The translations under genes were made by a program, and so were the position numbers. Shown here one piece after another: positions 4,974 through 32,778 of a stretch of 36,910 bases of DNA. The notes under the pieces were generated by a model. The model searched no databases. It had not been told where the DNA came from and saw only the letters and a program-made list of their open reading frames with translations. The first letter of the stretch is position 1; the number at the start of each line of letters is the position of its first letter. This DNA is from Methanomassiliicoccaceae archaeon (GTDB lineage: Archaea; Thermoplasmatota; Thermoplasmata; Methanomassiliicoccales; Methanomethylophilaceae): NCBI GenBank assembly GCA_031254685.1, contig JAIRTZ010000103.1:1-36910 (forward strand), written 5' to 3'.

Positions 4974-5643
4974 GCCGTCACGCCCCGTGATCGTGGTGAA
5001 CTTCAAGGTCTACCGTGAGGTCGAGGGGACGAAGGCGCTGGATATCGCAAGGATCTGCGGATCGGTATCGAAAGGATCGGGCATATCGATCGCCGCGTGT
5101 CCTCCGATGACCGAATTGGGGAACATTGCGCGCAGCGTCGATATTCCCGTATTCTCGCAGAACGCCGACCCGTGCCTTCCGGGTTCGTCCACAGGATGGT
5201 CAACGCCGTCCATGATCAAGGCGGCCGGCGCCGCCGGGACGCTGATAAACCACGCCGAGCACAGACAGACGATAAGGAACATCTCGCAGGTCATAGAATT
5301 AAGCAGGGGATGCGGGCTTAAGACGATAGTCTGCGCCGACTCCGTCGGGGCGGCGGTGCGGATCGCGAGATTCGCCCCGGACATGATCGCCGTGGAACCT
5401 CCGGAGCTGATCGGCGGGGACGTCTCGGTCACGGACGCCGACCCGGCGATCGTGGAGAATACCGTCAGCGCGGTCAAAAAGGTCAATAAAGGGATATCCG
5501 TCCTTTGCGGCGCGGGCGTGAAAACAGGCAAGGATGTCAAAAAGGCCCTGGAGCTCGGGGCCGGCGGAGTACTGCTCGCATCCGGCGTGGTGAAAGCGAA
5601 GGACCCGCGCGAGGCCCTGCTGGACCTTGTCAGATACCTGTAG
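4966..5643 (+). CDS. tpiA: Triosephosphate isomerase, short archaeal type
   Basis: 225-aa ORF with VIVVNFKVY, LINHAEHR, AVEPPELIG and CGAGV motifs typical of archaeal TIM. The TTG start at 4966 overlaps the fbp stop; GTG at 4987 is an alternative. It ends in TAG (5641-5643) with an in-frame TAA at 5650-5652. Confidence 0.9.
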   Translation: MTEPSRPVIVVNFKVYREVEGTKALDIARICGSVSKGSGISIAACPPMTELGNIARSVDIPVFSQNADPCLPGSSTGWSTPSMIKAAGAAGTLINHAEHRQTIRNISQVIELSRGCGLKTIVCADSVGAAVRIARFAPDMIAVEPPELIGGDVSVTDADPAIVENTVSAVKKVNKGISVLCGAGVKTGKDVKKALELGAGGVLLASGVVKAKDPREALLDLVRYL

Positions 5644-7689: not shown

Positions 7690-8119
7690 TTTGCAGGATA
7701 CCGACCGTTTATACGAGATACTGTGTTCGTCGCTGGACCAATCGTTCGGGAGGGAGATGTTCTCGTACTTCCATCTGCAGTGGCCGGCAGGACAGCTCGT
7801 CGCGTGCGACTTCTCGGGGAGGCCGATAGGTTTTCTGTCGGCGTCCAAAATAGATATGTCGCATGCGAGGATAATGATGTTCGCGGTCGACCGCGATCAT
7901 CGTTCGTTCGGCGTCGGTTCCAAGCTGCTGATGCATCTGAAACGTGTGGCGATGATGAACGGGATCAAACACATATCGCTGGAGGTCCGTCCCACGAACA
8001 TGCGCGCGATCAATTTCTATCAGCGCCACGGTTTCACCGCCACCGAGGTCCTCCGTACGTATTACACCGACGGCGGCGACGCCGTCAGGATGGACCATAT
8101 CGCTCAGTTGAACATCTGA
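7670..8119 (+). CDS. GNAT family N-acetyltransferase (RimI-like)
   Basis: 149-aa ORF. Acetyl-CoA binding motif A region VDRDHRSFGVGSKLLMHL, followed by ISLEVRPTNMRAINFYQRHGF. It overlaps the preceding gene by 20 nt. Confidence 0.8.
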   Translation: MIVREYDLQDTDRLYEILCSSLDQSFGREMFSYFHLQWPAGQLVACDFSGRPIGFLSASKIDMSHARIMMFAVDRDHRSFGVGSKLLMHLKRVAMMNGIKHISLEVRPTNMRAINFYQRHGFTATEVLRTYYTDGGDAVRMDHIAQLNI

Positions 8120-9621
8120 TCGCCGATGTGCTCGTCGTGCATGTAGTACGGCGACTTCTCTTTCTGAGATTCGGATACGTCCTTCGAGAGCCCTTTCATG
8201 TACGACCCGTACTTGTCCTTGATCTGCTCCTCTGCGGGCCTCGAACGCTTTATGGCGCGTTTGATGTGATCAACGTCTATCAATTCGGCGCCCTCCATGT
8301 TCGCGATGTCCCCCGCGGCGCGTATCAGTCCGCCCAGCTCCCTGAGGCGAAGCGTCAGCCCGGCAGGCTGGTTGTCCGCCTTCGCGCGTGTCTTTCCCTC
8401 GTCGATTATCATTTCCACGGCGGCGATCGTCGCATGCGGTATCCGTCCGTCCATGTGTATCTCCTGGGCGACGAACTGCGCGTATTTGGCGCGGTTCCTC
8501 GGTGTGTCGGGCATCGCGGTATCGATCAATACCTCGTAACCGCCGCCGATTATCCTGGACCTCACAGGCGAGAGGATATTCTCAAGGTCCTGTATGTTGC
8601 ACGCCGCGACGAGAATGAAATCGCAAGGTACGTTATCAACCTTGACGCTCGCGCCCGCGCTCTGCGGGTTGCGCCCGGCGATCGGGAACTTCTTGTCCTG
8701 CATCGCCGTAAGAATGAATCTCTGCAGATTGCCGAGATGCGAAATCTCGTCAACGAAGAGAACGCCCTCATGCGCCTCGTGTATCGATCCCGCGACAACG
8801 CGTTCGTATGCCGGCGTCCCGAGGTTGGTGTGCCCTCCGTACGGGTCGTGGCGGACGTCGCCCAAGAGCTCCGTCTCGGACGCGCCGGTGGCGAGGACAA
8901 AGGGATTGCGGTCGAGCTTCACCAGTATCTTCTGGTTTGACGTCTTGTCAAGCTCGCGGCGCTTCTCCAATGTCTTCTGATCGAGCATCCGTATCTTCTC
9001 GCCCGCCCGTTCGAAGACGATCATCTCTTCCGTGCCGTCGGTGTTGCGCCTTGACGTTGTCACTTTGTCCTTACCGAGCGAGACGTTGGGCATCGCCGAT
9101 TCAAGCATGCTCCCGAGTATGTCCCCGAACGGATTCGTATTGCCGCCGATGTCGCTCTTCGATTTGGAGCAATGAGGGCAAGTCCTCTCGCTGTACAGCG
9201 AATATTTGTGGCAGTTCTTGCACAGGTACCCCAAGCGCTCCGAGACGGCGTTCGGCGCCTTGTCCGGAGAGATCAGTTCTCCGGTCGCGCCCGCTTTCGA
9301 TATGTTCTCCTCAAGTATGTACGATTCTTCGACCACCTCGAGTATAGGCCTCTCCGGATTCTCCGGGTTGTTTACCACGCGGATCTCATTCTTCGGTTTC
9401 GGGAGGTGCAGCGATATCGCCTGCGCGATCATTGACTTACCGGTACCGGGAGGGCCGACGAGCAGCAGATGCCTGCGCTGTTTCGCGGCTATCTTTGCCA
9501 GCTCGATCGCTTCCTCCTGACCGAGGACCCTGTCCAGGGGATCCGCGGGGATCGCGATCTCCGCGGTGCTCCTCAGGCCCTTCAGGTCATTCCATTCCGT
9601 TATCGCTTTTTTCGCTGTCAT
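8104..9621 (-). CDS. LonB-family AAA+ ATPase lacking the Lon protease domain and TM insert, with a zinc-ribbon insertion
   Basis: N-terminus GQEEAIELAKIAAKQRRHLLLVGPPGTGKSMIAQ is typical of archaeal LonB. Walker B is VLFVDEISHL. A CKNCHKYSLYSERTCPHCSK Cys4 insertion lies between Walker A and B. No hydrophobic insert and no Ser-Lys protease domain are present (505 aa). The start lies 1 nt downstream of the dnaG stop. Confidence 0.72.
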   Translation of the reverse strand: MTAKKAITEWNDLKGLRSTAEIAIPADPLDRVLGQEEAIELAKIAAKQRRHLLLVGPPGTGKSMIAQAISLHLPKPKNEIRVVNNPENPERPILEVVEESYILEENISKAGATGELISPDKAPNAVSERLGYLCKNCHKYSLYSERTCPHCSKSKSDIGGNTNPFGDILGSMLESAMPNVSLGKDKVTTSRRNTDGTEEMIVFERAGEKIRMLDQKTLEKRRELDKTSNQKILVKLDRNPFVLATGASETELLGDVRHDPYGGHTNLGTPAYERVVAGSIHEAHEGVLFVDEISHLGNLQRFILTAMQDKKFPIAGRNPQSAGASVKVDNVPCDFILVAACNIQDLENILSPVRSRIIGGGYEVLIDTAMPDTPRNRAKYAQFVAQEIHMDGRIPHATIAAVEMIIDEGKTRAKADNQPAGLTLRLRELGGLIRAAGDIANMEGAELIDVDHIKRAIKRSRPAEEQIKDKYGSYMKGLSKDVSESQKEKSPYYMHDEHIGDQMFN

Positions 9622-15383: not shown

Positions 15384-15578
15384 TCATCCGCCGGATGCGA
15401 CACGCACCGTTTCGATGACGTCGCCGTCTTTGAGGACGGCGGTCATCGGCACCGGCCTGCCGTTCGAAAAGAAGATGAAGGCATCCGGGAATCTGCCCGC
15501 GGAGATCATCGCGGCCTCTATCGTAACGCCGCTTTCCGCAAGTAATTTTTCAGCTCCGAAAATTATGCTGGCCGTCAT
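15384..15578 (-). CDS. ThiS/MoaD-family beta-grasp sulfur carrier or small archaeal modifier protein (SAMP) candidate
   Basis: 64-aa ORF ending ...DGDVIETVRVASGG, with a C-terminal Gly-Gly immediately before the stop. Size and hydrophobic pattern are typical of ThiS/MoaD/SAMP. Confidence 0.62.
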   Translation of the reverse strand: MTASIIFGAEKLLAESGVTIEAAMISAGRFPDAFIFFSNGRPVPMTAVLKDGDVIETVRVASGG

Positions 15579-15676: not shown

Positions 15677-18217
15677 ATGAAGATCCATACAGTGCTTATC
15701 ATACTGCTGGTGGCCGCTTTGCCGCTGGCCGCCGCTGTCATCGGGGAGAGCGCGTCAGGCGCCGGAAAGATACCCGGGCTCGCGGGGAACGGGACGGGCG
15801 CAGACCCGTATCTGATATCCTCGGCGGCCGACCTGCGGACCATGTCCGCGTCGTACCAGAACCACAGCGGCGCGACCTACAGACAGACCGCCGACATTGT
15901 TTTCAGCGACACGGCCTTCCCGGGGGACAAGGCATACGTGCTGACATCCGTCTCCGGCGGAAAGGTGAAGGGCACCATAACCGTGAATGCCAAAACGGTG
16001 AGCACGGCCACGTCTGTGAAACTGTATCTGAACGGAAATCCGGTGGCCGTGAAGATTCAGGGCAAACTTGTAGAATTCGAAGTTGATACTGGAACGCTGA
16101 AGGACTCCAACTCTCTCGCCGCGACCGGGACCATCGAAGGGAACAGCTTCGGGATCGCCGTGAACTTTTCAAAGGCCGCCGCTGCCGATATGTCCGTATC
16201 CGCCCCGATAAGGGGGAACTTCACGCCGATAGGTACGAATGACGTACCGTTCGTCGGCACCTATGACGGCAACGGACGTTCCATTACCGGTATAAAGGTC
16301 GTCTCAACGGGTCCCGACGACGCCTGCACCGGTCTTTTCGGCAAGACCGGGAGCGGAACGATATACGATGTCACGATATTATCGAAAAATGACAACGCAT
16401 CATATTTTCTCACGAACGCCGTCAGCAAGAATTCTTACCAGTACGTGACCTCGCCGCCCCAGACGCTCGCATCCTACACCGGCAGCATCGTCGGCTGCGC
16501 GGCTCCCGGCACATCGGTGATCGCATGCCGGAACGAGGCCACGGTGCTCTCGGAAACGGAATTAGCTAAATATTACCTCTTCACCGGCATGTCCGGATTC
16601 CTGAACATCACCCGTAATTTTAATTTTGAAGCGGCATCGTACACCGGCGGGATAGCCGGATACGGGACCGGATACATGTACAGATGCGAAAATACCGGCA
16701 ATGTGATATCCTCGCTGAATTCGTCGTTCACATACAACGTTTCCAACGATCCGTTCGACGCGTCCAACAAATACAAATGCACATTCAATATCTCCGCGTG
16801 CAACTATGCCGGAGGGCTCCTCGGATACACGGAGACCGCGGACGTCTCCTCCTCCGGGAATACCGGCCTTGTGTCCGCGCTCAGCAGCTATTTCGTAAAG
16901 ATCGATCACACCCAATATCTGGACAACATCACCGCAACCCTGAACGAAACGTTCGTCACCTCCTCCGGCGGCATCGTCGGCTCGGCGCAGAAGGGCATTA
17001 TCTCAGATGTGTACAACTACGGGGCGGTTGCCGCCGATTGCGACTTTACGCACAGGACGCTGAAGACGATAGCGGAGAAGGATGTTCAGTCATTCACGTT
17101 CGACCTGTCCGCCGGGGGAATAGCGGGCAGGCTCGGGAACATCGAGATAAAGAGGGCGTACAACAGGGCCTCCGTCACCGCGGGCGGGACGGTCACTGCG
17201 ACACTCAACAGCATACAGAATGCCGGCGGGGTGCGTTATGCAGGCCAGATCGTCGGAATGGCGAAGAGCGACCCCGTAACCCTGACCGCCTGTTATTACA
17301 CCGACATCTCGGCAGGCCTTCCGGTGACCGGGAATCGAAGCCACACGGCGACGAAGATACCGGCGTCCGAAAAATTGTCATCAGCAACATTCCCCGCATG
17401 GGATTTCAGCAAGACGTGGGCGATATCGGATAACGGGACGGTCACGGTATCCGTGCGCAACCCGCTGACGATCATAGACAGATCGGGGACGAATGAGGGT
17501 ACTGTGAGATATTCCATAGACAGTCAGCACACGTTCGACGCCGGCGGCACCCTTTCCGGCTACGTTGACAGGAAAGGCTTCGCGGTAACGCTGAAGGAGG
17601 ACTACAAAAGTTCCGTCATATCGTTGTACATCACGTCAGGGAATGACAAGATATTCCTGACGAAGGACGGCAGCGGCAGATATCAGGTGCCTCAGAGTTA
17701 CCTTGTGTTCGGCGGCCCCGTGACGGTGAACATCGACGGTCTTGTCGCCGACCCGGTACGTAACATGAAGATCGAGGACAGATCGAACACGAACGACAGC
17801 GCAATAAAATATTCGATAGACAGGACGCATACCTTCGCCTCAGGCATTCTCTCGTCGCAGATCGACAAGAGGGGCTTCGCACTTACGCTGAAGAAGGATT
17901 ACGAGGGATCGGACATACAGCTGTACGTGATGGATGCCGGGAAAAGGACGGTGCTTGCGAAGGAGGGCGGCAGATATATCGTTCCGCTGCAGCACATCAT
18001 CGCCGCGACGACCGTGACGGTGTATATCGAAGGCCTCGTCGCCGATCCGGTACGCGAGATGAAGATAATCGACACATCGGAATTTTACGACCCCGCAGGA
18101 AAATATCTGATCGAAAGGCAGCACTCGTTCGATGGCGAGGGCACTCTGACGGCGCAGGTCGACAAGTGGGGCTTCCTTGTCGCATTGAAGAAGGATTACC
18201 TGTCATCGGAGATATAG
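15677..18217 (+). CDS. GLUG-motif adhesin-like surface protein, N-terminal segment: signal peptide, beta-helix/GLUG region, repeats 1-3, up to an in-frame TAG
   Basis: SD-like AGGGGAG before the ATG. Signal peptide MKIHTVLIILLVAALPLAAAVIG. GNGTGADPYLISSAADLRTM start typical of GLUG/beta-helix adhesins. Recurring GLUG-like motifs (TGLFGKTG, YTGGIAGYG, YAGGLLGYT, SSGGIVGSA, SAGGIAGRL). The ORF ends at TAG 18215-18217 in the middle of a repeat. Confidence 0.8.
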   Translation: MKIHTVLIILLVAALPLAAAVIGESASGAGKIPGLAGNGTGADPYLISSAADLRTMSASYQNHSGATYRQTADIVFSDTAFPGDKAYVLTSVSGGKVKGTITVNAKTVSTATSVKLYLNGNPVAVKIQGKLVEFEVDTGTLKDSNSLAATGTIEGNSFGIAVNFSKAAAADMSVSAPIRGNFTPIGTNDVPFVGTYDGNGRSITGIKVVSTGPDDACTGLFGKTGSGTIYDVTILSKNDNASYFLTNAVSKNSYQYVTSPPQTLASYTGSIVGCAAPGTSVIACRNEATVLSETELAKYYLFTGMSGFLNITRNFNFEAASYTGGIAGYGTGYMYRCENTGNVISSLNSSFTYNVSNDPFDASNKYKCTFNISACNYAGGLLGYTETADVSSSGNTGLVSALSSYFVKIDHTQYLDNITATLNETFVTSSGGIVGSAQKGIISDVYNYGAVAADCDFTHRTLKTIAEKDVQSFTFDLSAGGIAGRLGNIEIKRAYNRASVTAGGTVTATLNSIQNAGGVRYAGQIVGMAKSDPVTLTACYYTDISAGLPVTGNRSHTATKIPASEKLSSATFPAWDFSKTWAISDNGTVTVSVRNPLTIIDRSGTNEGTVRYSIDSQHTFDAGGTLSGYVDRKGFAVTLKEDYKSSVISLYITSGNDKIFLTKDGSGRYQVPQSYLVFGGPVTVNIDGLVADPVRNMKIEDRSNTNDSAIKYSIDRTHTFASGILSSQIDKRGFALTLKKDYEGSDIQLYVMDAGKRTVLAKEGGRYIVPLQHIIAATTVTVYIEGLVADPVREMKIIDTSEFYDPAGKYLIERQHSFDGEGTLTAQVDKWGFLVALKKDYLSSEI

Positions 18218-19840
18218 CTGTACGTGATCGACGGCGGCAAGAAGACGGCCCTTACGAAGGAGGTCGGCAGATATATCATTCCGGTGCAGCACCTTCTGAA
18301 CTCATCGACCGTGACGGTGTACATGGACGGCCTCGTCGCCGATCCGGTCAGGGATATGGTCATCGTCGACACATCGGACACATTCGACGGTACGATCAGG
18401 TATACGATAGACAGGGCGCACATCTTCTGCGCCGGCACACTCTACGCGGATATCGACAAGACGGGATTCGTGCTTACGCTGCTCGGAGATTACGTCAGGT
18501 CCGACATTGAGATCTATGTCGCACTCGGTGACGAAAGGATATACCTCACGAAGGACGGCAGCGGAAAATACATCGTTCCGGTGGAGATCATCCTCGGCGC
18601 GGACATCGTGACGCTGAGCATCGACGGCCTCGTCGCCGACCCGCTACGCGGGATGACGATCATCGACGCATCCGGAACATACTACGGGAACGCCAAGTAT
18701 TCGATAGACAGGGAGCACTCGTTCGACGGCAGCACACTCTACGCGGATATCGACAAGACGGGATTCGCGATCACGCTGATGAGAGATTACATTAACTCGG
18801 ACATCGCGATCTATTTGCTCATCGGTGACGAAAGGACGCTCCTCGAGACCGACGGCGACGGCAGATATGTCATTCCGCTCCGGACGCTCATCGACGCGGA
18901 TAAGATCGCATTATGCATCGAAGGCCTCGTCGCCGACCCGATACGTGAGATGACAATCGCCGACCCATCGGGAATGCACTGCGGGAACGCCAAGTATTCG
19001 ATTGACAGGGAGCACTCGTTCGATACGAACGGCGTTCTGTACGCGGATATCGACAGCAAAGGATTTGCGATCGCCCTCTCGGAGGATTACAAGGGATCGG
19101 ACATCAGGATATACATGATCCTCGCTGACGGAAGGACGCTTCTCGAAACGGACGGGGACGGCAGATATATGATCCCGCTGATGACACTTCTCGACGCGGA
19201 TATCATCGCATTATGCATCGAAGGCCTCGTTGCCGACCCGGTACGGGAGATGACCATCGCCGACAGATCGGGATATTATTACGGGATTGCCAAGTATTCG
19301 ATAGACGGGCCGCACTCATTCGACAAGGACGGCCGTCTGTCCGGCATCATCGATAAGACGGGGTTCGCGATCACGCTGATGACGGATTATTCGTCATCGG
19401 ACATAGAGGTGTACATGACGGTCGGCGGCATCGCGACGGCGGTCGGGAAGGACGGCAGCGGAAAATACATCGTTCCGCTGGAGACGCTTCTCGCGTCGCC
19501 ATCGGTGACCTTATTCATCGAAGGTCTCGTTGCGGACCCGGTACGCGATCTGGTGATGATCGACGTATCCGAGGGATCCGACGGTACGGTAAGATATGCG
19601 ACAGATCTGGAACACTCATTCGATCCGGACGGGATCCTTTTCGGAAAGATCGGCAGGACGGGTTTCGCTGTCACGCCGGAGGAGGGATACAATGTCTCCG
19701 GGATCTCGATATACATGACCCTCGGGGACGGGAGGCTCTACATTGAAAAAGACGCGGAAGGCAGATATATCGTCCCTCTGGAATATATTCTCGTCGCGGA
19801 AACGGTGACATTATACATTGACGGCATCATGAAAAACATT
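17456..19840 (+). repeat. Eight tandem coding repeats of 294-303 nt (98-101 aa) in the adhesin gene
   Basis: Repeat units start at 17456, 17759, 18053, 18350, 18647, 18944, 19244 and 19544. Each begins R-x-M/L-x-I-x-D and ends (I/V)(D/E)GLVADP(V/I/L). Units 5-7 are the most similar to one another (GNAKYSIDREHSFD, LLETDGDGRY.IPL, ALCIEGLVADP.REMTIAD). Confidence 0.9.
18215..18217 (+). other. In-frame amber (TAG) codon inside repeat 3 of the adhesin gene: nonsense mutation, or read-through/pyrrolysine candidate
   Basis: Same reading frame on both sides (15677 and 18224 are both congruent to 2 mod 3). Repeat 3 reads ATA TAG CTG TAC GTG, whereas repeat 2 reads ATA CAG CTG TAC GTG at 17917-17931. 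Confidence 0.85.
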
Positions 19841-20080
19841 CCCGCCGCAGATGATAATGATGACGATAAAGATGACGATGACAAGATCGATCATAAAAAT
19901 GACGGCGGAGCGATCATCGCCGCGGACCCCGGAGGGCCCGGGATGCTGGCATTTATATGCGTATTCGTCTTTATCGCACTCGGCGCGGGGTTGACCGCGG
20001 TCAACACATTGCGCACAAGGTCGATACTGAGGCTCTGCGGCAAGGGGGATACGGATGATAAAGAGAATGAGCAAACTTGA
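18218..20080 (+). CDS. GLUG-motif adhesin-like surface protein, C-terminal continuation: rest of repeat 3, repeats 4-8, Asp-rich linker, TM anchor
   Basis: Repeat homology continues without break across the TAG. No SD or ATG lies at the ORF-track GTG start (18224). The C-terminus has AADDNDDDKDDDDK and the hydrophobic helix GMLAFICVFVFIALGAGLTAV. TGA stop. Confidence 0.75.
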   Translation: MYVIDGGKKTALTKEVGRYIIPVQHLLNSSTVTVYMDGLVADPVRDMVIVDTSDTFDGTIRYTIDRAHIFCAGTLYADIDKTGFVLTLLGDYVRSDIEIYVALGDERIYLTKDGSGKYIVPVEIILGADIVTLSIDGLVADPLRGMTIIDASGTYYGNAKYSIDREHSFDGSTLYADIDKTGFAITLMRDYINSDIAIYLLIGDERTLLETDGDGRYVIPLRTLIDADKIALCIEGLVADPIREMTIADPSGMHCGNAKYSIDREHSFDTNGVLYADIDSKGFAIALSEDYKGSDIRIYMILADGRTLLETDGDGRYMIPLMTLLDADIIALCIEGLVADPVREMTIADRSGYYYGIAKYSIDGPHSFDKDGRLSGIIDKTGFAITLMTDYSSSDIEVYMTVGGIATAVGKDGSGKYIVPLETLLASPSVTLFIEGLVADPVRDLVMIDVSEGSDGTVRYATDLEHSFDPDGILFGKIGRTGFAVTPEEGYNVSGISIYMTLGDGRLYIEKDAEGRYIVPLEYILVAETVTLYIDGIMKNIPAADDNDDDKDDDDKIDHKNDGGAIIAADPGGPGMLAFICVFVFIALGAGLTAVNTLRTRSILRLCGKGDTDDKENEQT

Positions 20081-20660
20081 CGAGTTCTGCATGCCGGAGG
20101 TCTTTGTCATCGATACCGAGACCACCGGCCTCGACGGCGCGCCCAAGGATAAGGTCGTGGATATCGCGATATGCAGGGTCACCTTGGGCGGGGACAGCGT
20201 CGACACGGTATATTCATCGATCGTCGGCCACGATACCTCGAAGTGGAACAATGAGCTCAGGCACGCGTGGATATTCGAGAACACCGACCTCACCGCGGAA
20301 ATGGTCCGCAATGCGCCGCCTGAAGCGGACGTGGTGCGCGATGTCTCGCGGATACTCAGCGGAAAGAATGTCACAAGCTTCAATTATTCCTTTGATTTCG
20401 ACAAGTTCCTGTACAGACAGCCGTGGTCCCTGCGCGATATCATCGTTCCGTTCAAATGCGTCATGATAGCGTCCAAGGACGTCTGCAGACTGCCGGGGAT
20501 GTACGAGGATTACAAATATCCGAGGCTCGACCAGGCGTACTCCATGATCGTCAAAGGAGACCCGGCGGGGATCGCCGGAAAGCAGGCGCACAGGGCGCTG
20601 TCGGATGCCGTGATGGCGTCATACATCTTACTGGAACTTTACAGAACGGGGCACTACTGA
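20067..20660 (+). CDS. DEDDh 3'-5' exonuclease (DnaQ/RNase T superfamily)
   Basis: ExoI VFVIDTETTGLDG, ExoII VTSFNYSFDFDKFL and ExoIII HRALSDAVMASYILLEL. The start is ATG 20067 (MSKLDEF) or 20055, overlapping the adhesin gene end. The 3' end overlaps the convergent ATPase gene by 7 nt. Confidence 0.8.
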   Translation: MSKLDEFCMPEVFVIDTETTGLDGAPKDKVVDIAICRVTLGGDSVDTVYSSIVGHDTSKWNNELRHAWIFENTDLTAEMVRNAPPEADVVRDVSRILSGKNVTSFNYSFDFDKFLYRQPWSLRDIIVPFKCVMIASKDVCRLPGMYEDYKYPRLDQAYSMIVKGDPAGIAGKQAHRALSDAVMASYILLELYRTGHY

Positions 20661-23245
20661 TCCTTCTTCTTGCGGATGCTCTTGAGGCGCAGCGAATACA
20701 GCCATTCGGTGAAGTTGGTGGCCTTCTCGAGTATCCCGTTCCTTAATACCCATCGCGTGACGAAGAACCATGCGACCGCCACCCCGATCGTGACCGCATA
20801 GATCGGCCAAGGCAGCGGCGGTATATCGACGAACTCAGAGAACACGGGATAGTTGAACACCCCCCAGTACGCCAGCGCAAGCAGGCCGAAGAGAAGGAAT
20901 GCGAGTATGGTCGGTTTGATGTCCTTTGCGATCCTTCCGTCAACGGAGAAGAATCTGAACCGCGGGACGACGACCGTCATCTGCGCTATCGCCACGACGA
21001 CAAGGAACAGCAGCAGCGAGTTGCGTGCGACGATCTCCGGGATGGCGTCCTCTGTGGCGTTGTTGAAACCGAACAGCGCGAGATCGCCTGATGTGAGGTC
21101 GACCCTGAATATCCCGTCGAACAGATGATGGCTCATACCGATATGGAAGAACGAGTACAGCAGCATCCCGAATATCGTTATCAGGATCGCCGTCGGTATC
21201 GCGAACCTGAGCACCTCCGGTAAGATCGAGCCCTCGACCTTCGACGGCTTCGCCCATACCACCATGAAGAACGACCCGATCGAAAGACCGATGATGGCAT
21301 AGAACGTCGCCGTTATCGGAACGAGCGGGGGCGCGTGGAACAGGATTATCGTAAGGAAGACGAGCAGGCATATCACGAAGTTCCTGGAAAGATACATCTT
21401 CAGTATGTCGCGCATCCCCGACACGGTGCGGTTGCCCTCGATCATGGCCTTCGGCAATGCCGAGAAATCATCCGACATAAGTACCATGTCGGCCACCCCG
21501 CGCGCGGCGCCGCTCCCGCTCTGCAGCGCCACACCGACGTTGGCCTCTTTCAGCGACCTCACATCGTTCACGCCGTCGCCGACCATTGCGACGTATCTCC
21601 CGCTGTCCTTCAGTGTTTTTATCACCATCTGCTTCTGATCGGGCTTCATGCGTCCGAAGATGTTCGTCTCAAGTATCCTTTCCTTCCTCGCGGGATCGCT
21701 CAGCTTATCAAGCTCATCGCCGGAAAGTATCTTCCTTTCGCCGGGGAGCCCGGCGATCATGAACAGCGAGTTCACGGCCTCGGGGTCGTCGCCCGATAAT
21801 ATCCTGATCTCCATGCCGTTGTCGATGAACTTGTTCATCGTATCCCTGCAGTCCGGTCTTACCTCATCCTCGATCGCTATAACCGCGACAGGTTCGAGAT
21901 CGGGAAGTATCGGAACGTCTCCGTCATAGAATCCGCCGCCCGCACCGGTCGCGAGGACAACGGCCCTCAGCCCGCGCGAGGAATATTCTTTCACGGCATT
22001 CTCGATGCCCTTGGTATCGGTCATATTCCTGGAGAGGACATTGAACGCCCCCATTATCAGCATCACTTCGTCATCGCCTTCGATAACGCGTACGCCGGAA
22101 TATTTGCGCTCGGGAGAGAACATTATCTCGTCAACGAGTTCCGTCTCGGTCTTTCCGTATCTGTTCGCTATCGCGTCTATCGTCTTGTTCCTGCTGCCGG
22201 TGGCGGATGCGAACACCGTCGCGTAATGTTCCGCCAGGGCCAGATCGGTCACGGGGGTGATGCTGTTGAATACCAGACGGTTCGTGGTTATCGTTCCCGT
22301 CTTGTCCATACAGACGGTGTCCACGTGGCTTATCGATTCTGTTGCGTTCGCCCTCTGCAGGAGGACGCCAGAGTCGGACATGCGCACAGCGGCGATCATA
22401 TACGCGATCACAAGCATCGGAAAGAGCCCGATGGGCACCATGTCGAGAATGACCTCGGCCATCTTGGCGCTCTCTGCGCTGTTGATGTCGACGATGCTGT
22501 GCGTCGTGAGGACGTTCCAAAGGATCATCACCGCGAGATAGACCAATGCGATGGCCATCATGAACTTGGTCACCGCGCCGGTCTCCATTTGCAAAAGGCT
22601 GAGTTTGTTGTCAAATTTCTTCGCGCTCGCAAGCATCTTCGCCGCGAACGTCCTGTCTCCGAAGACGGTCACCTGATAATATCCTTCGCCGGTGACGCAG
22701 TGAGAGCCCGAGTATATCATGTCGTCGGCCTTTTTTCTCACTGTCCGGGATTCTCCGGTCAGCAGGGATTCATCCATCTCTATGGAACGGACCTTAAGGA
22801 GGACGCCGTCGACCAGCGCCTGGTCGCCGCTCCGGAGATGGATCACGTCGTCCTTCACGATCATCGATTGATCTATCTCCTCCTCGATGCCGTTCCTGAT
22901 GACGGCCACCTTCGGCCTCATGAGCAGCGCGATCTTATCCAATCGGCGCTTCGCCCGGATCTCCTGTATCGTCGCGATCACGATGTTTATCGTTATCATC
23001 CCGACCGCCGCCAATGCGCTCGGGATCTCGTGGAAATAAAGGAGAACGGCGCCCAGCGAGAACAGTATGAGGTTGAATATCGTCAGAACATTTCTGGTGA
23101 CGATATCAAAATAGGTCCTGCTGACGACAGGCTCCACGGAATTGATCTCTTTGTTGGAGATCCTTTCGGCAACCTGGCTGTCCGTCAGTCCCTCGAATTC
23201 CATATACGTAAATCGCACACGCTTATAAAAAACGTGTGAGGTCAT
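20654..23245 (-). CDS. P-type cation-transporting ATPase (type II/III-like) with non-canonical TM4 motif PIGL
   Basis: LTGES actuator motif, phosphorylation site CMDKTGTITTN, hinge MVGDGVNDVRSLKEANVGVAL and about 10 hydrophobic helices. TM4 reads MVPIGLFP where Ca/Na,K pumps have PEGL. The start is ATG 23245 (ATGA overlap with the upstream stop) or ATG 23203 (MEFEGLTDSQV). It ends in TAG with an in-frame TAA five codons later. Confidence 0.9.
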   Translation of the reverse strand: MTSHVFYKRVRFTYMEFEGLTDSQVAERISNKEINSVEPVVSRTYFDIVTRNVLTIFNLILFSLGAVLLYFHEIPSALAAVGMITINIVIATIQEIRAKRRLDKIALLMRPKVAVIRNGIEEEIDQSMIVKDDVIHLRSGDQALVDGVLLKVRSIEMDESLLTGESRTVRKKADDMIYSGSHCVTGEGYYQVTVFGDRTFAAKMLASAKKFDNKLSLLQMETGAVTKFMMAIALVYLAVMILWNVLTTHSIVDINSAESAKMAEVILDMVPIGLFPMLVIAYMIAAVRMSDSGVLLQRANATESISHVDTVCMDKTGTITTNRLVFNSITPVTDLALAEHYATVFASATGSRNKTIDAIANRYGKTETELVDEIMFSPERKYSGVRVIEGDDEVMLIMGAFNVLSRNMTDTKGIENAVKEYSSRGLRAVVLATGAGGGFYDGDVPILPDLEPVAVIAIEDEVRPDCRDTMNKFIDNGMEIRILSGDDPEAVNSLFMIAGLPGERKILSGDELDKLSDPARKERILETNIFGRMKPDQKQMVIKTLKDSGRYVAMVGDGVNDVRSLKEANVGVALQSGSGAARGVADMVLMSDDFSALPKAMIEGNRTVSGMRDILKMYLSRNFVICLLVFLTIILFHAPPLVPITATFYAIIGLSIGSFFMVVWAKPSKVEGSILPEVLRFAIPTAILITIFGMLLYSFFHIGMSHHLFDGIFRVDLTSGDLALFGFNNATEDAIPEIVARNSLLLFLVVVAIAQMTVVVPRFRFFSVDGRIAKDIKPTILAFLLFGLLALAYWGVFNYPVFSEFVDIPPLPWPIYAVTIGVAVAWFFVTRWVLRNGILEKATNFTEWLYSLRLKSIRKKKDQ

Positions 23246-26070
23246 CCGCCCGCGAAGGAGGCGATACGCTGATAAATCTCGTCGATGCCGATCGGTTCCA
23301 CGGTAACGGAGATGCCTTGCGACACATAGTCGATCACGCATACCACGGGCTTCCCGAGCGACGACGCGGCGTGCGCGTAAACGCTCATCTGAATACGGTA
23401 ACGCGGCTCGTTGTCACGATTCATGTCGGTCTTGAAATCATGGACCTCCACGCGGTCCTTGAATATCGCCAGCATGTCGATGCGCCCGGCGATGACCGTG
23501 TCCTTCATCGGAAGGGAACAATCCGTTTCCGTCAGTATCTCCGCGCCCTTCAGGGAATCGTATATCTTTCTGATGTATCTTGTCTCATCATCGCTGACGC
23601 TCGGGATCATCCCGGACATTATCCTCTGCGCATCCTTGTGGACGCGTATCCCGTGATCGGCGCCCTTTCCTCCGCCGCTCTCCTCGTATGCGCCCATGAT
23701 GTCGTGCAGGGATATCCGGTTCATACGGGGCTCATATCCCGGGACGGACGGTCTTTCGTTCACCGCCGCCGTCACGGTCCGCTCCCGCTTCTCAAGTATC
23801 GGGTCCGTATCGGTCATTTCGCCGTCGCAGACGTCCCTGATGAAATATGACGGCTTGGTGCCGAAGCAGGTCATCGTTATGTACTGCCTGGCGCGCGACA
23901 GCGCCACGAAGAACAATCTCCGTTCCTCGTCGCGGTCCGGCGGAAGACTGTCGATGATGTTCCATTTCCAGCATTTGAACACCTTGTGATGTTTGCCCGT
24001 CACAACGTAATCGTTCTTCAGGCGCACGCCGTACAGCGGGTCGAACGCGATCACCGAATCATCATGCTTGTCGAGCGGCATCTTGCTCATCGTCAGCCCC
24101 CCGACGATGACGATCGGATATTCGAGCCCCTTCGATTTGTGCATCGTCTGTATCATAACGGAGCGGCCGTCAAGCGGCGCGTCGACGTTGTATCTCGATC
24201 CCCTTTTCATATCCGTTTCGATGAGCCCGATCATCTCCGATATCGTCAGCATGCTGCCGCTGTGCGTTGACGATATCGTTGAGATTATGGACTGCGTGAT
24301 ATCGTTGTTCAATCCGTGGTATGCGAATATCGACGTCAGCAGGTCGTTTATCCTCCGTCTCTTCGTCCTCAGCGTCTCGCGATGCCTCTCCATCCCGTCG
24401 GGTATGCACGGGACGCCGTGCCTGGGGAACATCGCGCGCAGCTCCGCGAGCGTGTATCCCGAGTCGGCGAGTATCGTCACGGGGCCGCGGAGGTCGGTGC
24501 GGTTGTTGATGTATCTCAGCCAGGCGAGCACAAGCTTTCCCTCGCGGGTGTCCATGATGCTGACATCGCCCTGGAGATGCGCCGGTATCCCGTAACGGTC
24601 GGCTTCGTTCTTTATGTCGATGCACATCTTGTTCGCCCTGCACAATACCGCGATGTCGCCGTATTCCGGCTGTCTGTCGCGGATGATATTTCCGTCGGCA
24701 TCGTAAACGGGGATGCGGTACCGCGGGTCCGTTACGTATTCGGTGATCCTCTGCAATATCGCAAGCTTTTCCTTGTCGTATGTTTCCGCATGCAGTCTTT
24801 CCGCGTGCGTATATCCGCCGTGGTCCCTGAACGCCGTCAGCTGCGTCACGTTCGCGTCAAGGTATGCGGTGTCGATCGTCTCATCCTTCCTTGCCCTGCA
24901 CCGGAGCGTCCTGAACGCGGCGTCGATGACCGTCTGCGAACTTCTGTAGTTCTCGGTCAGCGGCAGCGAAACAGGTTCGCCGTCGAACGGAACGACACGT
25001 TTCTCCCCTTTGTTCAGGAATCTCGTCATTTCCGCGAGGCGCTCTCTGAAATGTATCATGTTGTCGACGCTCGCGTACCTGAATCCGTAGATTCCCTGCT
25101 TCCAGTCGCCGACGGCGCAGAGGTTCGGTTCACGGAGGATCAGGAGCGATATCATGAACTGCAGTTCGTTCGTATCCTGGAACTCGTCCACCATTACGTA
25201 ACGGAAGGACATCATCTTCCTGACCCGCTTGCTCGAGTAAAGGATGATGAACGCGAACAGCGCGTTCAGGCCGAACGTCAGCCTGTTGTCGGATATCGAC
25301 GATCGTATGTATTCGTAATAGACGCCGTTGATGAACCGCAGGAGAAGCGCCCTCGGGTCGTTCGCGGCCTCCTTTATCATTTCCCCGGTCACCTCATCCA
25401 GTCTTCTGTCCGGCGGCAGGTCGTTGGCCGCCGCGGAGTACCGCACGTTCGCTCTCTCGGTATTCTTTGATAACTTTTCGATAAGCTTTTCGGTGTCCCC
25501 GAACAGCGAGTCCCTGCTGCGCCCGAACCATCCCTCGTCGTGCGTCGGCGCGATGCCGATGGCCATCAGCCGTTGGATGACGTCGTACACATCCGACGCG
25601 GACGTTCCGACGATCGCCGGTATATTTCCGTATATGTGCCCGTATCTTCTGATGAACCGGGTGTACACGTTCCTGAAATATTCTTGGTCAATGGTCTCAT
25701 TCTGCACAAGCCTGGCGTTCCTCGTAAGTGTTTCCTTCGTCTTGAAGAACTCTTTCACCGTTTCCGGCGATTCCATCACCACCCGCAGACAGAATGCATC
25801 GAACGTCGACGAGCGGACGGCGGACGCATCGGCGTCCGCAGACGAACAAAGCATCTCGCTCTTCACGCGCCCCTCCATCTCCAGGGCGGCGTTGTTGGTG
25901 AACGTCAGCAGAAGGATGTCGGACGGGGCAACCTCCTTTCTGAGGATGTTAAGGTATCTCTGCACGATGGTGTGCGTCTTCCCGGTGCCCGGCCCGGCAT
26001 CCACGGCGACGATGCCGTCCGTCGTCTCCGCGATCTTCTGCTGGCGCTCATTCAGATTCGTCATCGTCAC
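23242..26070 (-). CDS. UvrD/Rep-family SF1 helicase fused to a C-terminal PD-(D/E)XK (RecB-type) nuclease; AddA-like
   Basis: Walker A VDAGPGTGKTHT, motif II MVDEFQDTNELQF, motif V/VI TMHKSKGLEYPIVIV and FFVALSRARQYITM. C-terminal nuclease motifs GIRVHK, GRIDML, EVHDFKT and YRIQMSVYA. It overlaps the upstream gene by 17-23 nt. Confidence 0.85.
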   Translation of the reverse strand: MTMTNLNERQQKIAETTDGIVAVDAGPGTGKTHTIVQRYLNILRKEVAPSDILLLTFTNNAALEMEGRVKSEMLCSSADADASAVRSSTFDAFCLRVVMESPETVKEFFKTKETLTRNARLVQNETIDQEYFRNVYTRFIRRYGHIYGNIPAIVGTSASDVYDVIQRLMAIGIAPTHDEGWFGRSRDSLFGDTEKLIEKLSKNTERANVRYSAAANDLPPDRRLDEVTGEMIKEAANDPRALLLRFINGVYYEYIRSSISDNRLTFGLNALFAFIILYSSKRVRKMMSFRYVMVDEFQDTNELQFMISLLILREPNLCAVGDWKQGIYGFRYASVDNMIHFRERLAEMTRFLNKGEKRVVPFDGEPVSLPLTENYRSSQTVIDAAFRTLRCRARKDETIDTAYLDANVTQLTAFRDHGGYTHAERLHAETYDKEKLAILQRITEYVTDPRYRIPVYDADGNIIRDRQPEYGDIAVLCRANKMCIDIKNEADRYGIPAHLQGDVSIMDTREGKLVLAWLRYINNRTDLRGPVTILADSGYTLAELRAMFPRHGVPCIPDGMERHRETLRTKRRRINDLLTSIFAYHGLNNDITQSIISTISSTHSGSMLTISEMIGLIETDMKRGSRYNVDAPLDGRSVMIQTMHKSKGLEYPIVIVGGLTMSKMPLDKHDDSVIAFDPLYGVRLKNDYVVTGKHHKVFKCWKWNIIDSLPPDRDEERRLFFVALSRARQYITMTCFGTKPSYFIRDVCDGEMTDTDPILEKRERTVTAAVNERPSVPGYEPRMNRISLHDIMGAYEESGGGKGADHGIRVHKDAQRIMSGMIPSVSDDETRYIRKIYDSLKGAEILTETDCSLPMKDTVIAGRIDMLAIFKDRVEVHDFKTDMNRDNEPRYRIQMSVYAHAASSLGKPVVCVIDYVSQGISVTVEPIGIDEIYQRIASFAGG

Positions 26071-28729
26071 CGCCCCTTGTGCATATCTGCCGGAAATAGC
26101 ATCTGTCGCATCCCTTCCTCGGCGTGTACGGGAAACCGCTGTGCTGCTGCTCGTTCGCCCTCTTGTGTATCTTACGCGCGTATTCCTTGAATCTCCCGAT
26201 CGATTCTCCCGGGATGATTATTCTGTTCTCGTCATCGATCACGATGAAGCATCTCATCAGCAGCTTGGCGGAATCCCGGATAACTTTTTCAGTTTCCTCG
26301 CGTGCCGCTTTGGTCCGCTTCCCGTGCATCGCCATGATCCTTTCAAAAAGTTCCGTATCCCCGGCCCACCTCTCCGGGTTCCCGACGCCGGCGGCCAGCA
26401 GCGCGCTCCCGAATCTGCTGCCGAGTTCCGTAATGATGTCGCTGGTCTTCCTGGTGCACACCATTCTGAGCACCGTCCCGTTACGGACGATGTCCTCGCG
26501 GCTCAGCAGCGAGATGGTTCTTGCATTTTTCATGATGTTGAAGTCCGGGTCGTTGGCAGATTCGACATCATTGTCCGTCGTATAGAATTGAATGAACTCC
26601 TTCTTCCCGGTGCCTCCGAGCATGTCGTCGAGTATCGAGAGATAAACGAACGGCTGCAGCTCGTAATAATCGTTCTTTTTGGACGCATCCATCTTCTTCG
26701 CGATATCATCGACATTGTACGGCCTTCCCGATTTGTAATCAATTATGCGGTTGCCGTACAGCAGGTCGAACCTCCCCTCCAGCGGGGTCGCGTCGGAACG
26801 GCACGACCTTTCCATGATGTCCGTTCGTTGATCTTTTCCGAAGTGCTCGAAGAACGGGTTCCTTCTGCCTTTCGGTGCGTCGGTGAGCTGCACCGCGATG
26901 TTCAGGGAATCAATGAACCGTGACACATTGGTCATCGACACCCGTATCCTCGATCTGTCGAGCTCCCGTTTCTCGGGACACGATATCCCCGCCCACGCGT
27001 CGGCGAGTATGTCCGTGCATGTTTCGATATTCGTCCTTGCGATGTCGGGATAGCAGAGGCAGAATTCCGCGAACTCGTGGACCATGTTGCCGAAGACGAT
27101 GCCCTCGGTGTCCGGCGGCCCGACAAGTTCTCCGAACATGTACGCCATCGGGCATGTGACATAGAGGTTCATCGTCGACTTCGAGAATCTGCGTATGTCG
27201 CCGTCCGTGCCGCCGGCAGGATGCCTGTCATTCGCAGGCGGTGCGCCGGGGGAGCACCATGCGCCCCTGACGACCGTCGTGTTAACGAGGTCGCCGAACG
27301 ATGAGACCTTTCTCATCACGCCGTCCGCGTCGGTGTTCAGACGGTCGAAGAGCGTGCAAGGCCTCGCCTCCTTGCCGCCTTTCATCGTGTTGACGAGATG
27401 CATCCTCACGGAACCCTGCTGCAGGAGTATCTGAAACCTCTGTCTTTCCTTCTCATCCTCTTCGGCGCGGTCGATATAACTTTCACCGGCAGCGGACCCC
27501 GACCAGGCGCCGTCCATGTTCACGTATATGACGAACGGCCGATCGATGAACGCCGAATTGCGGCAGTCCGTCAGGAGAACGCCGCGTCTCTCATTGTCGG
27601 GGATCTGCGCGTTGTGCTTTATCCCGTCCATCGAGTTTATCAGGTACGATGCGTGGCCGGCCGTCCTTTCATTGATCAGTTCATCACCCAGGCCGAGCTC
27701 CCCGAATATCATGTTAACGGTCCCATTGGCGCCCTTGCCGACGATCGCGCCGCAAAGCTCGGAGAACGTGTGTTCTCTAATATTCTTCATTTTCTCCGAG
27801 AGCGCTTTAGCGCCGTCCTTCGATATCCTCGCGTGCCTGTCCAGTAAGTATTCGTCGAACCTGCTGTCCATCCATACCCCGTAGCATGCGAACAGTTCTC
27901 TTACGTCGCCAACCGTTAAAATCTCGTATGAGAGCGATCTCGTCACGAACTCCATGAAATCCCTGACGTCGATGAGGTCCCTTGCGCTCAGTGTGTTCTT
28001 GAATCCTATCCCTTTCCGATACAGCGCGGAACGCACCGCGTCGGATATCGCCCCCTGCGTGTCCATGACTATGGCGACGTCCTCGGTGCTGCGTCCGGCG
28101 ATCATATCGACCGCGTGCTCCGCGACCTGTCTGTCGTTGCCGACCGCGTACACGGTTCCGATATCGTAGCGGCCATTCTCTTTGAATAAGGAGATATCAT
28201 CAAAATCCATCGGGATGAAATGCTTATCGAGATCGTCAAAAAGCTCGATTCCGATCACCGCGACCTTTTTTCCGTCATAAGTATGATGTTCCGACGGGTC
28301 GAAGGACGCCATCACCAACTCGTATGTCGGCAGTTCCGTGTATATCCTGTATATCTCCCTCGAGGACCTTCCGGCCAGATATTTTTCGACATCCTTCCTG
28401 TATCTTCTGATAAGACGGATGTTCTCCACTTCCCCGTGAACGAAACGTATGTCGTGCTTCGTCGCCTTCGTTATGAGGTCCAAAATGCGGACGTCGTCCA
28501 TTATCCCGTATCTTCCGTCCCTTGTGCATCTGCCTTCAGACATCAGCTTTTCGAGGATCGCGTCCTCGCGGTCCTTGGCGATCATCCTCGGGGTTGACGC
28601 CAATCTGCCGATCCTCGGCGCATCGATGCGGTTGTTCAGCGCCGTCACTAGCGCGGCGTCATTGGAAATGACGATATCGTATCTTTTCGATTCGTCATAC
28701 AGCTCGTCAATGGTCTTGGCAACCTTCAC
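26048..28729 (-). CDS. AddB-like protein: degenerate helicase-like N-terminal region plus PD-(D/E)XK nuclease with a four-Cys iron-staple signature
   Basis: No Walker A motif in the N-terminal ~550 aa. The C-terminal domain has C-x...GNMVHEF, EGRFDLLYGNRIIDYKSG and YELQPFVY. One upstream Cys (YVTCPMAYMF) plus terminal CDRCYFRQIC (CxxCx5C) matches AddB/Cas4 Fe-S nucleases. The only start at the ORF head is GTG 28729. Confidence 0.72.
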   Translation of the reverse strand: MKVAKTIDELYDESKRYDIVISNDAALVTALNNRIDAPRIGRLASTPRMIAKDREDAILEKLMSEGRCTRDGRYGIMDDVRILDLITKATKHDIRFVHGEVENIRLIRRYRKDVEKYLAGRSSREIYRIYTELPTYELVMASFDPSEHHTYDGKKVAVIGIELFDDLDKHFIPMDFDDISLFKENGRYDIGTVYAVGNDRQVAEHAVDMIAGRSTEDVAIVMDTQGAISDAVRSALYRKGIGFKNTLSARDLIDVRDFMEFVTRSLSYEILTVGDVRELFACYGVWMDSRFDEYLLDRHARISKDGAKALSEKMKNIREHTFSELCGAIVGKGANGTVNMIFGELGLGDELINERTAGHASYLINSMDGIKHNAQIPDNERRGVLLTDCRNSAFIDRPFVIYVNMDGAWSGSAAGESYIDRAEEDEKERQRFQILLQQGSVRMHLVNTMKGGKEARPCTLFDRLNTDADGVMRKVSSFGDLVNTTVVRGAWCSPGAPPANDRHPAGGTDGDIRRFSKSTMNLYVTCPMAYMFGELVGPPDTEGIVFGNMVHEFAEFCLCYPDIARTNIETCTDILADAWAGISCPEKRELDRSRIRVSMTNVSRFIDSLNIAVQLTDAPKGRRNPFFEHFGKDQRTDIMERSCRSDATPLEGRFDLLYGNRIIDYKSGRPYNVDDIAKKMDASKKNDYYELQPFVYLSILDDMLGGTGKKEFIQFYTTDNDVESANDPDFNIMKNARTISLLSREDIVRNGTVLRMVCTRKTSDIITELGSRFGSALLAAGVGNPERWAGDTELFERIMAMHGKRTKAAREETEKVIRDSAKLLMRCFIVIDDENRIIIPGESIGRFKEYARKIHKRANEQQHSGFPYTPRKGCDRCYFRQICTRGGDDDESE

Positions 28730-32755: not shown

Positions 32756-32778
32756 CGGTCTCACTTATCGGCTTTGGA

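Follow-up and report, generated by a model that had tools for sequence, protein, structure and literature searches.

A candidate pyrrolysine codon within the stalk repeats of a membrane-anchored surface protein from a Methanomethylophilaceae-like archaeon

In mtmB, mtbB and mttB, which encode methylamine methyltransferases, an in-frame TAG is decoded by the tRNA for pyrrolysine (Pyl); the residue is catalytic there, its position is conserved in archaea and bacteria, and some mtmB genes carry a pyrrolysine insertion sequence (PYLIS). The tRNA-His guanylyltransferase Thg1 of Methanosarcina acetivorans holds a Pyl at a non-conserved, dispensable position that is occupied by ordinary residues in relatives, a residue reportedly gained by neutral drift (work attributed to Heinemann et al., 2009). 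Genes with TAG codons have since been sorted into four categories by Kivenson et al., who described many Category 1 genes (internal TAG) in Methanomethylophilus, Methanogranum and Methanoplasma, saw no requirement for a PYLIS, predicted 1,903 Pyl proteins, and detected Pyl by mass spectrometry in 12 of the 15 predicted cases that M. alvi expressed; outside the methyltransferases, the sites were nearly all lineage-specific singletons, compatible with neutral mutation (10.1101/2024.09.30.615893). In M. acetivorans, the gene for the sensor kinase RdmS contains a UAG and gives rise to two proteins, one long and one short (Shalvarjian et al., PNAS 2025, PMC12626013), and read-through efficiency in that organism was proposed to track Pyl supply and demand (PMC12626013). 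Here we analyse a gene that may belong to this company, a 1,467-codon frame for a predicted surface protein, interrupted by one TAG, on a 36,910-nucleotide stretch of archaeal DNA (assembly GCA_031254685.1, contig JAIRTZ010000103.1, positions 1 to 36,910; hereafter the window).

The frame runs on the plus strand from 15677 to 20080, opening at an ATG with a Shine-Dalgarno-like GGGGAG 5-10 nt 5' of it and closing with a TGA at 20078-20080; its sole in-frame TAG is codon 847, at 18215-18217. Read mechanically, it falls into two open reading frames (ORFs), one from the ATG to the TAG (15677..18217, 846 amino acids), after which the frame stays open for 620 further codons, and one that opens at a GTG two codons past the TAG (18224..20080). 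In public protein collections each half is listed as a product in its own right, P0001 (846 amino acids) and P0271 (618 amino acids, from the GTG at 18224). The original prediction, made from the sequence, had joined these ORFs into one gene, and the shared frame, the ORF coordinates and the position of the TAG were confirmed on the sequence. A signal peptide, read from the sequence and kept in all orthologues (residues 1-28, MKIHTVLIILLVAALPLAAAVIGESASG; 15677..15760), is followed by a beta-rich, GLUG-like N-terminal domain with repeated GG[IL][IVAL]G motifs that extends to residue 594 (15764..17458), and then by eight tandem repeats of 96-100 amino acids (288-300 nt; residues 595-1385; 17459..19831) whose copies share 60-80% nucleotide identity. 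An Asp-rich linker (residues 1386-1422; 19832..19942), with acidic counterparts in the homologues P0272 and P0284, leads to a transmembrane (TM) anchor (19943-20011, residues 1423-1445) and a basic/acidic cytoplasmic tail with a conserved R..SILR motif, anchor and tail together spanning 19943..20077. The signal peptide accordingly lies 5' of the TAG, and the remaining repeats, the linker and the TM helix lie 3' of it, as had been predicted. The companion claim that the downstream ORF has no Shine-Dalgarno sequence is only approximately true, as a GGAG at 18208-18211 stands 12 nt before the GTG at 18224; it arises from Ser-Glu codons and its spacing to the GTG is poor. Internal re-initiation at this GTG was therefore rejected, the GGAG being badly spaced and the product being a repeat protein with no signal peptide.

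Using the read-through protein as a query for homologues, and the CbiA-like neighbour as a handle on further syntenic loci, we recovered seven syntenic orthologues. The nearest, P0002 (contigs L001 and L002), is uninterrupted over 1,476 amino acids, carries the same eight repeats and matches the window protein at 50% identity and 100% coverage; P0003 (contig L003) is also uninterrupted (1,622 amino acids, 34% identity), and the whole gene at 15677..20080, with its TAG read through, is collinear with both. The orthologues on contigs L128 (794 amino acids) and L129 (741 amino acids) each combine the same head with one repeat, the linker and the anchor, and those on L126, L124 and L130 are N-terminal fragments cut at contig ends, P0272 being likewise partial. 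None of the seven contains an in-frame stop, and the TM anchor and an R..SILR-type tail are present in all that reach the C-terminus. Gene order is shared between the window and its relatives, with CobQ, the CbiA-like gene and an antisense ORF of 64-79 amino acids on one side of the large protein and an RNase T-like gene, a P-type ATPase and a UvrD-like helicase on the other. The window protein is 49.9% identical to P0002 upstream of the TAG and 51.8% downstream (33% and 38%, respectively, to P0003), and because both sides align equally with uninterrupted orthologues, the TAG-split frame is more than chance, on grounds of homology rather than statistics. With uninterrupted syntenic orthologues that keep the anchor wherever the C-terminus is reached, the two ORFs are one gene, as proposed, and it makes sense only as a single unit. 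From its sequences, the family appears to be surface-anchored, with a stalk that varies from 1 to about 10 repeats between orthologues. A profile search of genome contigs with the adhesin alignment returned remote GLUG-domain matches only, mostly bacterial, and no orthologue.

Read-through adds 620 amino acids, and the gene fits the definition of Category 1 (>30% identity on both sides of the TAG and >15 amino acids of read-through). Like the Category 1 genes described under Genetic Code 34 (10.1101/2024.09.30.615893), it has one TAG, does not encode a methyltransferase, comes from a host in the family of M. alvi, is a lineage-specific singleton and has no PYLIS. It differs from them in that its decoding as Pyl is a prediction, and in that its product is extracellular and anchored, surface proteins being absent from that study's main text. 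A relative, moreover, has a Category-4-like TAG stop, and the clade may be of the 'Group B' type, in which TAG is ambiguous, rather than fully recoded.

The TAG lies in the third of the eight repeats, and the other seven copies carry a sense codon in its place (S, Q, E, A, R, E and S), as had been stated. The codon strings reported for repeats 2 and 3 are also exact, ATA CAG CTG TAC GTG at 17915-17929 and ATA TAG CTG TAC GTG at 18212-18226, and within that part of the array no pair is closer than the second halves of these two repeats (78% identity over 239 nt). The proposed single C-to-T difference from a sense codon was borne out by the orthologues: when the three proteins are aligned, P0002 has Gln and P0003 has Thr opposite the TAG, and the P0002 codon in L001 is CAG, so that the simplest history is one C-to-T transition. 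A reading of the TAG as Gln by another suppressor, in keeping with the Gln of the orthologue, was discarded as unnecessary, CAG to TAG being one step; no archaeal code is known in which TAG means Gln.

Across 23 aligned repeats the TAG column has a variable, polar make-up (E, S, Q, A, R, G or T) and is flanked by an invariant Ser at -3 and an invariant Tyr at +2. In an AlphaFold model of repeat 4 built on this 23-repeat alignment (predicted local distance difference test, pLDDT, 91; predicted template modelling score, pTM, 0.81), the equivalent residue, 58, is the first of a predicted strand, 58-63. The alternating I-x-I-Y-V pattern, together with the polar and variable occupancy of the column, argues that the side chain at this position faces solvent, and a long basic lysine derivative should be tolerated at a column where Arg already occurs. 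No PYLIS-like stem-loop was found 3' of the UAG: the 120 nt from the UAG have a minimum free energy of -31.8 kcal/mol, compared with a shuffle mean of -35.8 kcal/mol (z=+1.05), and 170 of the 200 shuffled sequences reach an energy that is as low or lower. The gene thus has an in-frame TAG in common with mtmB, mtbB and mttB, but unlike their conserved, catalytic and sometimes PYLIS-associated codon, this site is unique, non-catalytic and unstructured.

The window encodes an archaeal fructose-1,6-bisphosphate (FBP) aldolase/phosphatase, a short triosephosphate isomerase (TIM), DnaG, a LonB-like ATPase, an MtaA-like methyltransferase and cobamide genes. Its FBP phosphatase falls in a 90% cluster with NCBI proteins from metagenome-assembled genomes labelled 'Methanomassiliicoccaceae archaeon'. 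The aspartyl-tRNA synthetase (AspRS) is 78-91% identical to metagenome proteins, 77% to that of Ca. Methanogranum gryphiswaldense and 74-75% to that of 'Ca. Methanomethylophilaceae archaeon'; the CbiA-like protein shares 61-86% identity within that set of metagenome proteins, 58% with Methanogranum and 49% with Ca. Methanoplasma termitum. The guess of a Methanomassiliicoccales-type archaeon is right at order level, given the FBP phosphatase cluster and the best named AspRS matches, Ca. Methanogranum and Methanomethylophilaceae. By these protein comparisons the host appears to sit in a Methanomethylophilaceae-like clade of the order Methanomassiliicoccales that is distinct from Methanoplasma, whose species Ca. 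Methanoplasma termitum has a CbiA-like protein of only 49% identity. Sources of the relatives are JGI 3300002462, 3300027891, 3300027904, 3300042550 and 3300042598 and ENA ERZ272573xx, which we take to be higher-termite gut metagenomes. If they are, an unconfirmed candidate for the host genus is Methanomicula, a termite-specific basal genus (PMC10684969).

Stop-codon usage was compared between the window and its relatives. With the surface-protein gene set aside, the 25 window genes end in TGA (18), TAA (5) or TAG (2), and the called genes of the relatives end in TGA (71), TAA (22) or TAG (3). The clade total of 5/121 TAG ends (4.1%) is lower than the 22% seen in archaea without Pyl (P=4e-8), and it is also lower than the 10.5% share of TAG among stop trinucleotides in the window (P=0.01). 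Median TAG stop use has been given as 4.1% in Pyl-positive (Pyl+) Methanomethylophilaceae and 22% in Pyl-negative (Pyl-) archaea (PMC12626013). The statement that the lineage avoids TAG as a stop holds only in part, as 2 of the other 25 genes of the window do end in TAG. These are the TIM gene (TAG at 5641..5643, plus strand), which has a TAA two codons later, and the P-type ATPase gene (TAG at 20654..20656, minus strand), which has a TAA four codons later; the L001 and L003 orthologues of the latter end in TAA there. Both have a near TAA back-up and so correspond to Category 2, and the depletion of TAG in the clade, together with the near back-up stops, fits a Pyl-adapted genome. The back-ups are weak evidence, because in relatives these genes can likewise have a second stop close behind a TGA or TAA end. 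TAG ends of the TIM and P-type ATPase genes are common to the window and a fairly distant relative (CbiA-like protein 67% identical); other relatives have TGA or TAA at these ends.

We favour, at a probability of roughly 55%, the interpretation that the TAG is a CAG-to-TAG accident in a Pyl-decoding methanogen, with Pyl placed at a permissive position of the stalk, the full-length anchored protein still made and an 846-amino-acid by-product formed beside it. On this interpretation the CAG (Gln) of repeat 3 would have mutated to TAG, and tRNA-Pyl(CUA), charged by pyrrolysyl-tRNA synthetase (PylRS) and presumed to decode UAG in the host as in its family of methyl-reducing methanogens, would insert Pyl at codon 847 during at least some rounds of translation, giving the anchored full-length protein. 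The archaeal release factor aRF1 would compete for the UAG, and the remaining events would release the unanchored 846-amino-acid fragment in proportion. The suggestion of two isoforms from one gene, made in the original prediction, has a published precedent in RdmS (PMC12626013). Most likely, the substitution itself was an accident, neutral or slightly deleterious, at a variable, solvent-facing position, and not an adaptation. Thg1 offers the nearest parallel, in that its Pyl too occupies a non-conserved, dispensable position with ordinary residues in relatives, and a tolerated accident is the best reading; read-through of Thg1 was shown biochemically, whereas that of the window gene is predicted.

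A metagenome collection was scanned for pylS with the M. alvus PylRS sequence (100% identical to PDB 6JP2 and 6EZD). Contig L088 carries a complete cluster of ramA, a pylT-like tRNA gene, pylS, pylB, pylC and pylD and has the same metagenome prefix, Ga0209628, as the relative L002. Other pylS contigs share a sample prefix with relatives as well: L086 and L094 with L055 and L125 (Ga0209737), and L066 with L052 (JGI24702J35022). On L075, which belongs to a metagenome series that also yielded relatives of the window, two mtmB genes adjoin pylS, split by a TAG at profile position 196 in the typical ~205/258-codon manner. In tetranucleotide composition, those pylS contigs of this group that exceed 5 kb correlate with the window at 0.78-0.88, against 0.57-0.76 for M. 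alvus-like and the other pylS contigs compared, a signature that is suggestive of, and compatible with, membership of these pylS contigs in the clade. Two other ways of linking the contigs to the clade were abandoned, GC content because it ranges from 49% to 56% among close relatives and is useless here, and the pylS sequences themselves because those of the main group are 75-100% mutually identical and all lie equally far from M. alvus. L088 also encodes (7497-8459, minus strand), some 2 kb away from its pylTSBCD genes, a 320-amino-acid protein whose only match is to the C-terminal domains of SelB/EF-1-alpha (7.6e-21).

Several observations weigh against decoding of this TAG as Pyl. The 36.9-kb window contains no pyl gene, pylT or methylamine methyltransferase, and Rfam and tRNA scans of it were empty. 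Methanomethylophilaceae includes both Pyl+ and Pyl- genomes (PMC12626013), and the clade is not among the three Methanomethylophilaceae genera named and validated in the 2024 study, as far as the available part of that study extends (10.1101/2024.09.30.615893). No nucleotide overlap exists between the pylS contigs and the clade contigs, and non-homologous 5-10 kb fragments of verified relatives correlate with the window at 0.89-0.93, just above the pylS contigs' maximum of 0.88. The three TAG stops of the relatives all lie on one contig (L051/L128; L051 8073-8075 and 11321-11323, L128 14048-14050), on which read-through would extend the TIM by 50 codons, overlapping a PLD gene by 104 nt, the AspRS by 216 codons, fusing it in frame to Hjc, and the ATPase by >19 codons; these long read-throughs argue that TAG is a real stop in at least part of the clade. 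TAG ends are also unevenly spread, with 5/46 genes in the window and the L051/L128 contig and 0/75 elsewhere (P=0.007). The identity of the stop is of limited help, since 49-54% of the one-step nonsense mutations possible in the gene give TAG, and a TAG therefore favours 'tolerated because decoded' only about twofold. Lastly, a Tajima relative-rate test with P0003 as outgroup gave 74 changes in the window and 42 in P0002 downstream of the TAG (P=0.004) and 70 and 70 upstream (interaction P=0.03), in a comparison in which repeat orthology is ambiguous and the outgroup differs in repeat number; an excess of window changes confined to the downstream part could reflect relaxed constraint.

These observations bear on a second, more tentative interpretation, which we regard as possible and as the main rival: a nonsense mutation of very recent origin that is not productively read through, either because the organism is without Pyl machinery or because the release factor wins. 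The gene would then encode a secreted, unanchored fragment of 846 amino acids, set against the 1,476 of the nearest eight-repeat orthologue, and its 3' 1.86 kb would be a nascent pseudogene. One C-to-T transition from the orthologous CAG is the classic amber change, and large repeat-rich surface proteins are frequent targets of gene decay. The 49-54% share of TAG among one-step nonsense changes, the presence of Pyl- members in the family of a host whose own Pyl machinery is presumed, the behaviour of TAG as a true stop on L051/L128 and the excess of lineage-specific substitutions downstream of the TAG only all speak for this interpretation. An ordinary amber pseudogene would likewise show a single CAG-to-TAG change truncating a long ORF relative to its orthologues.

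The window gene differs from such a pseudogene in having no secondary lesions and in coming from a family that commonly suppresses UAG. In the 620 downstream codons we found no second stop or frameshift, and loss of conserved residues was not apparent either: over 27 columns with 85% or more conservation among 16 reference repeats, the two upstream repeats of the window deviate at 4 and 6 columns and the five downstream repeats at 4, 2, 3, 2 and 7 (mean 3.6). With conserved positions kept equally on both sides, any decay would have to be extremely recent. Seven other orthologues without in-frame stops indicate that the gene is normally under selection, and the TAG depletion of the clade and the back-up stops of the window fit a Pyl-adapted genome. 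As for the asymmetry in rate, repeats 5-7 of P0002 show zero deviations from the consensus, and homogenisation of these repeats, as from gene conversion, can also explain it; neutral drift that added about 30 substitutions should, we infer, also have left stops or indels. The TAG is either translated or very young, and we treat the rate excess as unexplained, not as evidence of decay.

A third interpretation, in which the population really carries CAG and the T at 18215 reflects an error of the consensus or an uncommon strain variant picked up in assembly, appears improbable. The contig is assembled from a metagenome, no second copy is present in the collections searched (P0001 is a singleton cluster, and exact look-ups of the 846-amino-acid product and of the DnaG encoded in the window gave no match) and the site lies within a repeat array, but the repeats share only 60-80% DNA identity with no long exact repeats, the site is outside any homopolymer, and the 36.9-kb contig shows no disruption in any of its other genes. 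Substitution errors are rare in assembled consensus sequences. Repeat collapse or misassembly was rejected, the copies being only 60-80% identical.

Least likely, and in our view very improbable, is a selected UAG switch in which the ratio of anchored to released protein tracks Pyl-tRNA supply and hence methylamine availability, anchored protein being made when Pyl-tRNA is plentiful and the soluble head released when the methyltransferases' demand for Pyl exceeds supply: termination here would indeed part the head domain from its anchor, and M. acetivorans makes long and short RdmS with read-through proposed to follow Pyl supply and demand (PMC12626013), but the TAG is unique to the window contig, no orthologue has a stop at any position, no RNA structure lies 3' of the UAG, and non-methyltransferase Pyl sites are nearly all singletons that fit neutral mutation (10.1101/2024.09.30.615893). 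The resemblance to RdmS lies in a UAG within a multi-domain, non-essential protein and in two products from one gene; RdmS is, however, a cytoplasmic regulator from another archaeal order whose two forms were shown by experiment, whereas the secreted head and the anchored form considered here are predicted.

The N-terminal domain of the protein matched the Pfam family Glug (PF07581) at 18.3 bits, below the 20.5 cut-off, and PF07581 and PF05342 occur in distant homologues; an AlphaFold2 model of this domain is all-beta and of low confidence (pLDDT 54), too poor for a reliable fold match, and none was obtained. The ~99-amino-acid stalk repeat matched no Pfam family above its cut-off, and its modelled fold had no match in the PDB at E<=0.001. 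An exhaustive search with the repeat profile picked out, at E<=1e-10, only 24 representatives among 1.84 billion, the majority ~700-790 amino acids long with one repeat and a few with several (P0272 has seven); it also brought back both halves of the window gene, P0001 and P0271. In its signal peptide, beta-rich GG[IL]xG head, repeat stalk and anchor, the protein is like GLUG-motif surface proteins and the adhesin-like proteins of gut microbes (PF07581; IgA1-protease-type heads). It is set apart from them by its sub-threshold Glug match and by a stalk repeat with no Pfam or PDB match and ~24 representatives; a role in adhesion is assumed.

Among the neighbouring genes, the RNase T-like gene begins 26 nt before the end of the surface-protein gene (overlap 20055-20080; 41 nt in L001), and the conserved overlap suggests that the two are co-transcribed. 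The antisense ORF between the CbiA-like and surface-protein genes (64 amino acids, 15384-15578, minus strand) has the same place and size in all syntenic relatives (79 amino acids in L003), and the copy in one relative has a weak match to ThiS. Further along (23242-28729, minus strand) comes a UvrD-type helicase of 942 amino acids whose C-terminus is a PD-(D/E)XK nuclease domain, followed by a second PD-(D/E)XK protein (893 amino acids), an AddAB-like pair that is kept in all relatives. At 30871-32764 (minus strand), an AAA_21 ATPase (348 amino acids) adjoins a DUF4435 protein (284 amino acids); these match PADLOC AriA (1.5e-28) and AriB (1.2e-17), and the pair resembles an anti-phage system of the PARIS type, here carried by a methanogenic archaeon.

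The interrupted surface-protein gene is probably not a new phenomenon but a further, unvalidated example of what was described in 2024-2025, with a mechanism and a likely neutrality that are already known; internal TAG codons in non-methyltransferase genes of this family are already catalogued and, in M. alvi, confirmed by proteomics (10.1101/2024.09.30.615893). What it adds is a clade that is not named in the available parts of those papers, an extracellular anchored protein, and a public annotation that is split into two ORFs. Should the TAG instead be a fresh nonsense mutation, the locus would be an ordinary snapshot of gene decay, and the advance is incremental either way. A selected switch, if real, would couple attachment to a host or particle to methylamine availability through the genetic code. 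If the TAG is translated as Pyl, one functional surface protein has been recorded by standard gene callers as two hypothetical ones (P0001 and P0271), an error of which the Code 34 study warns, and an extracellular, membrane-anchored protein would join the list of Pyl proteins, possibly as the first case of Pyl on an extracellular archaeal protein. The gene would then be a natural reporter of UAG ambiguity, in which the secreted short form and the anchored long form are physically separable.

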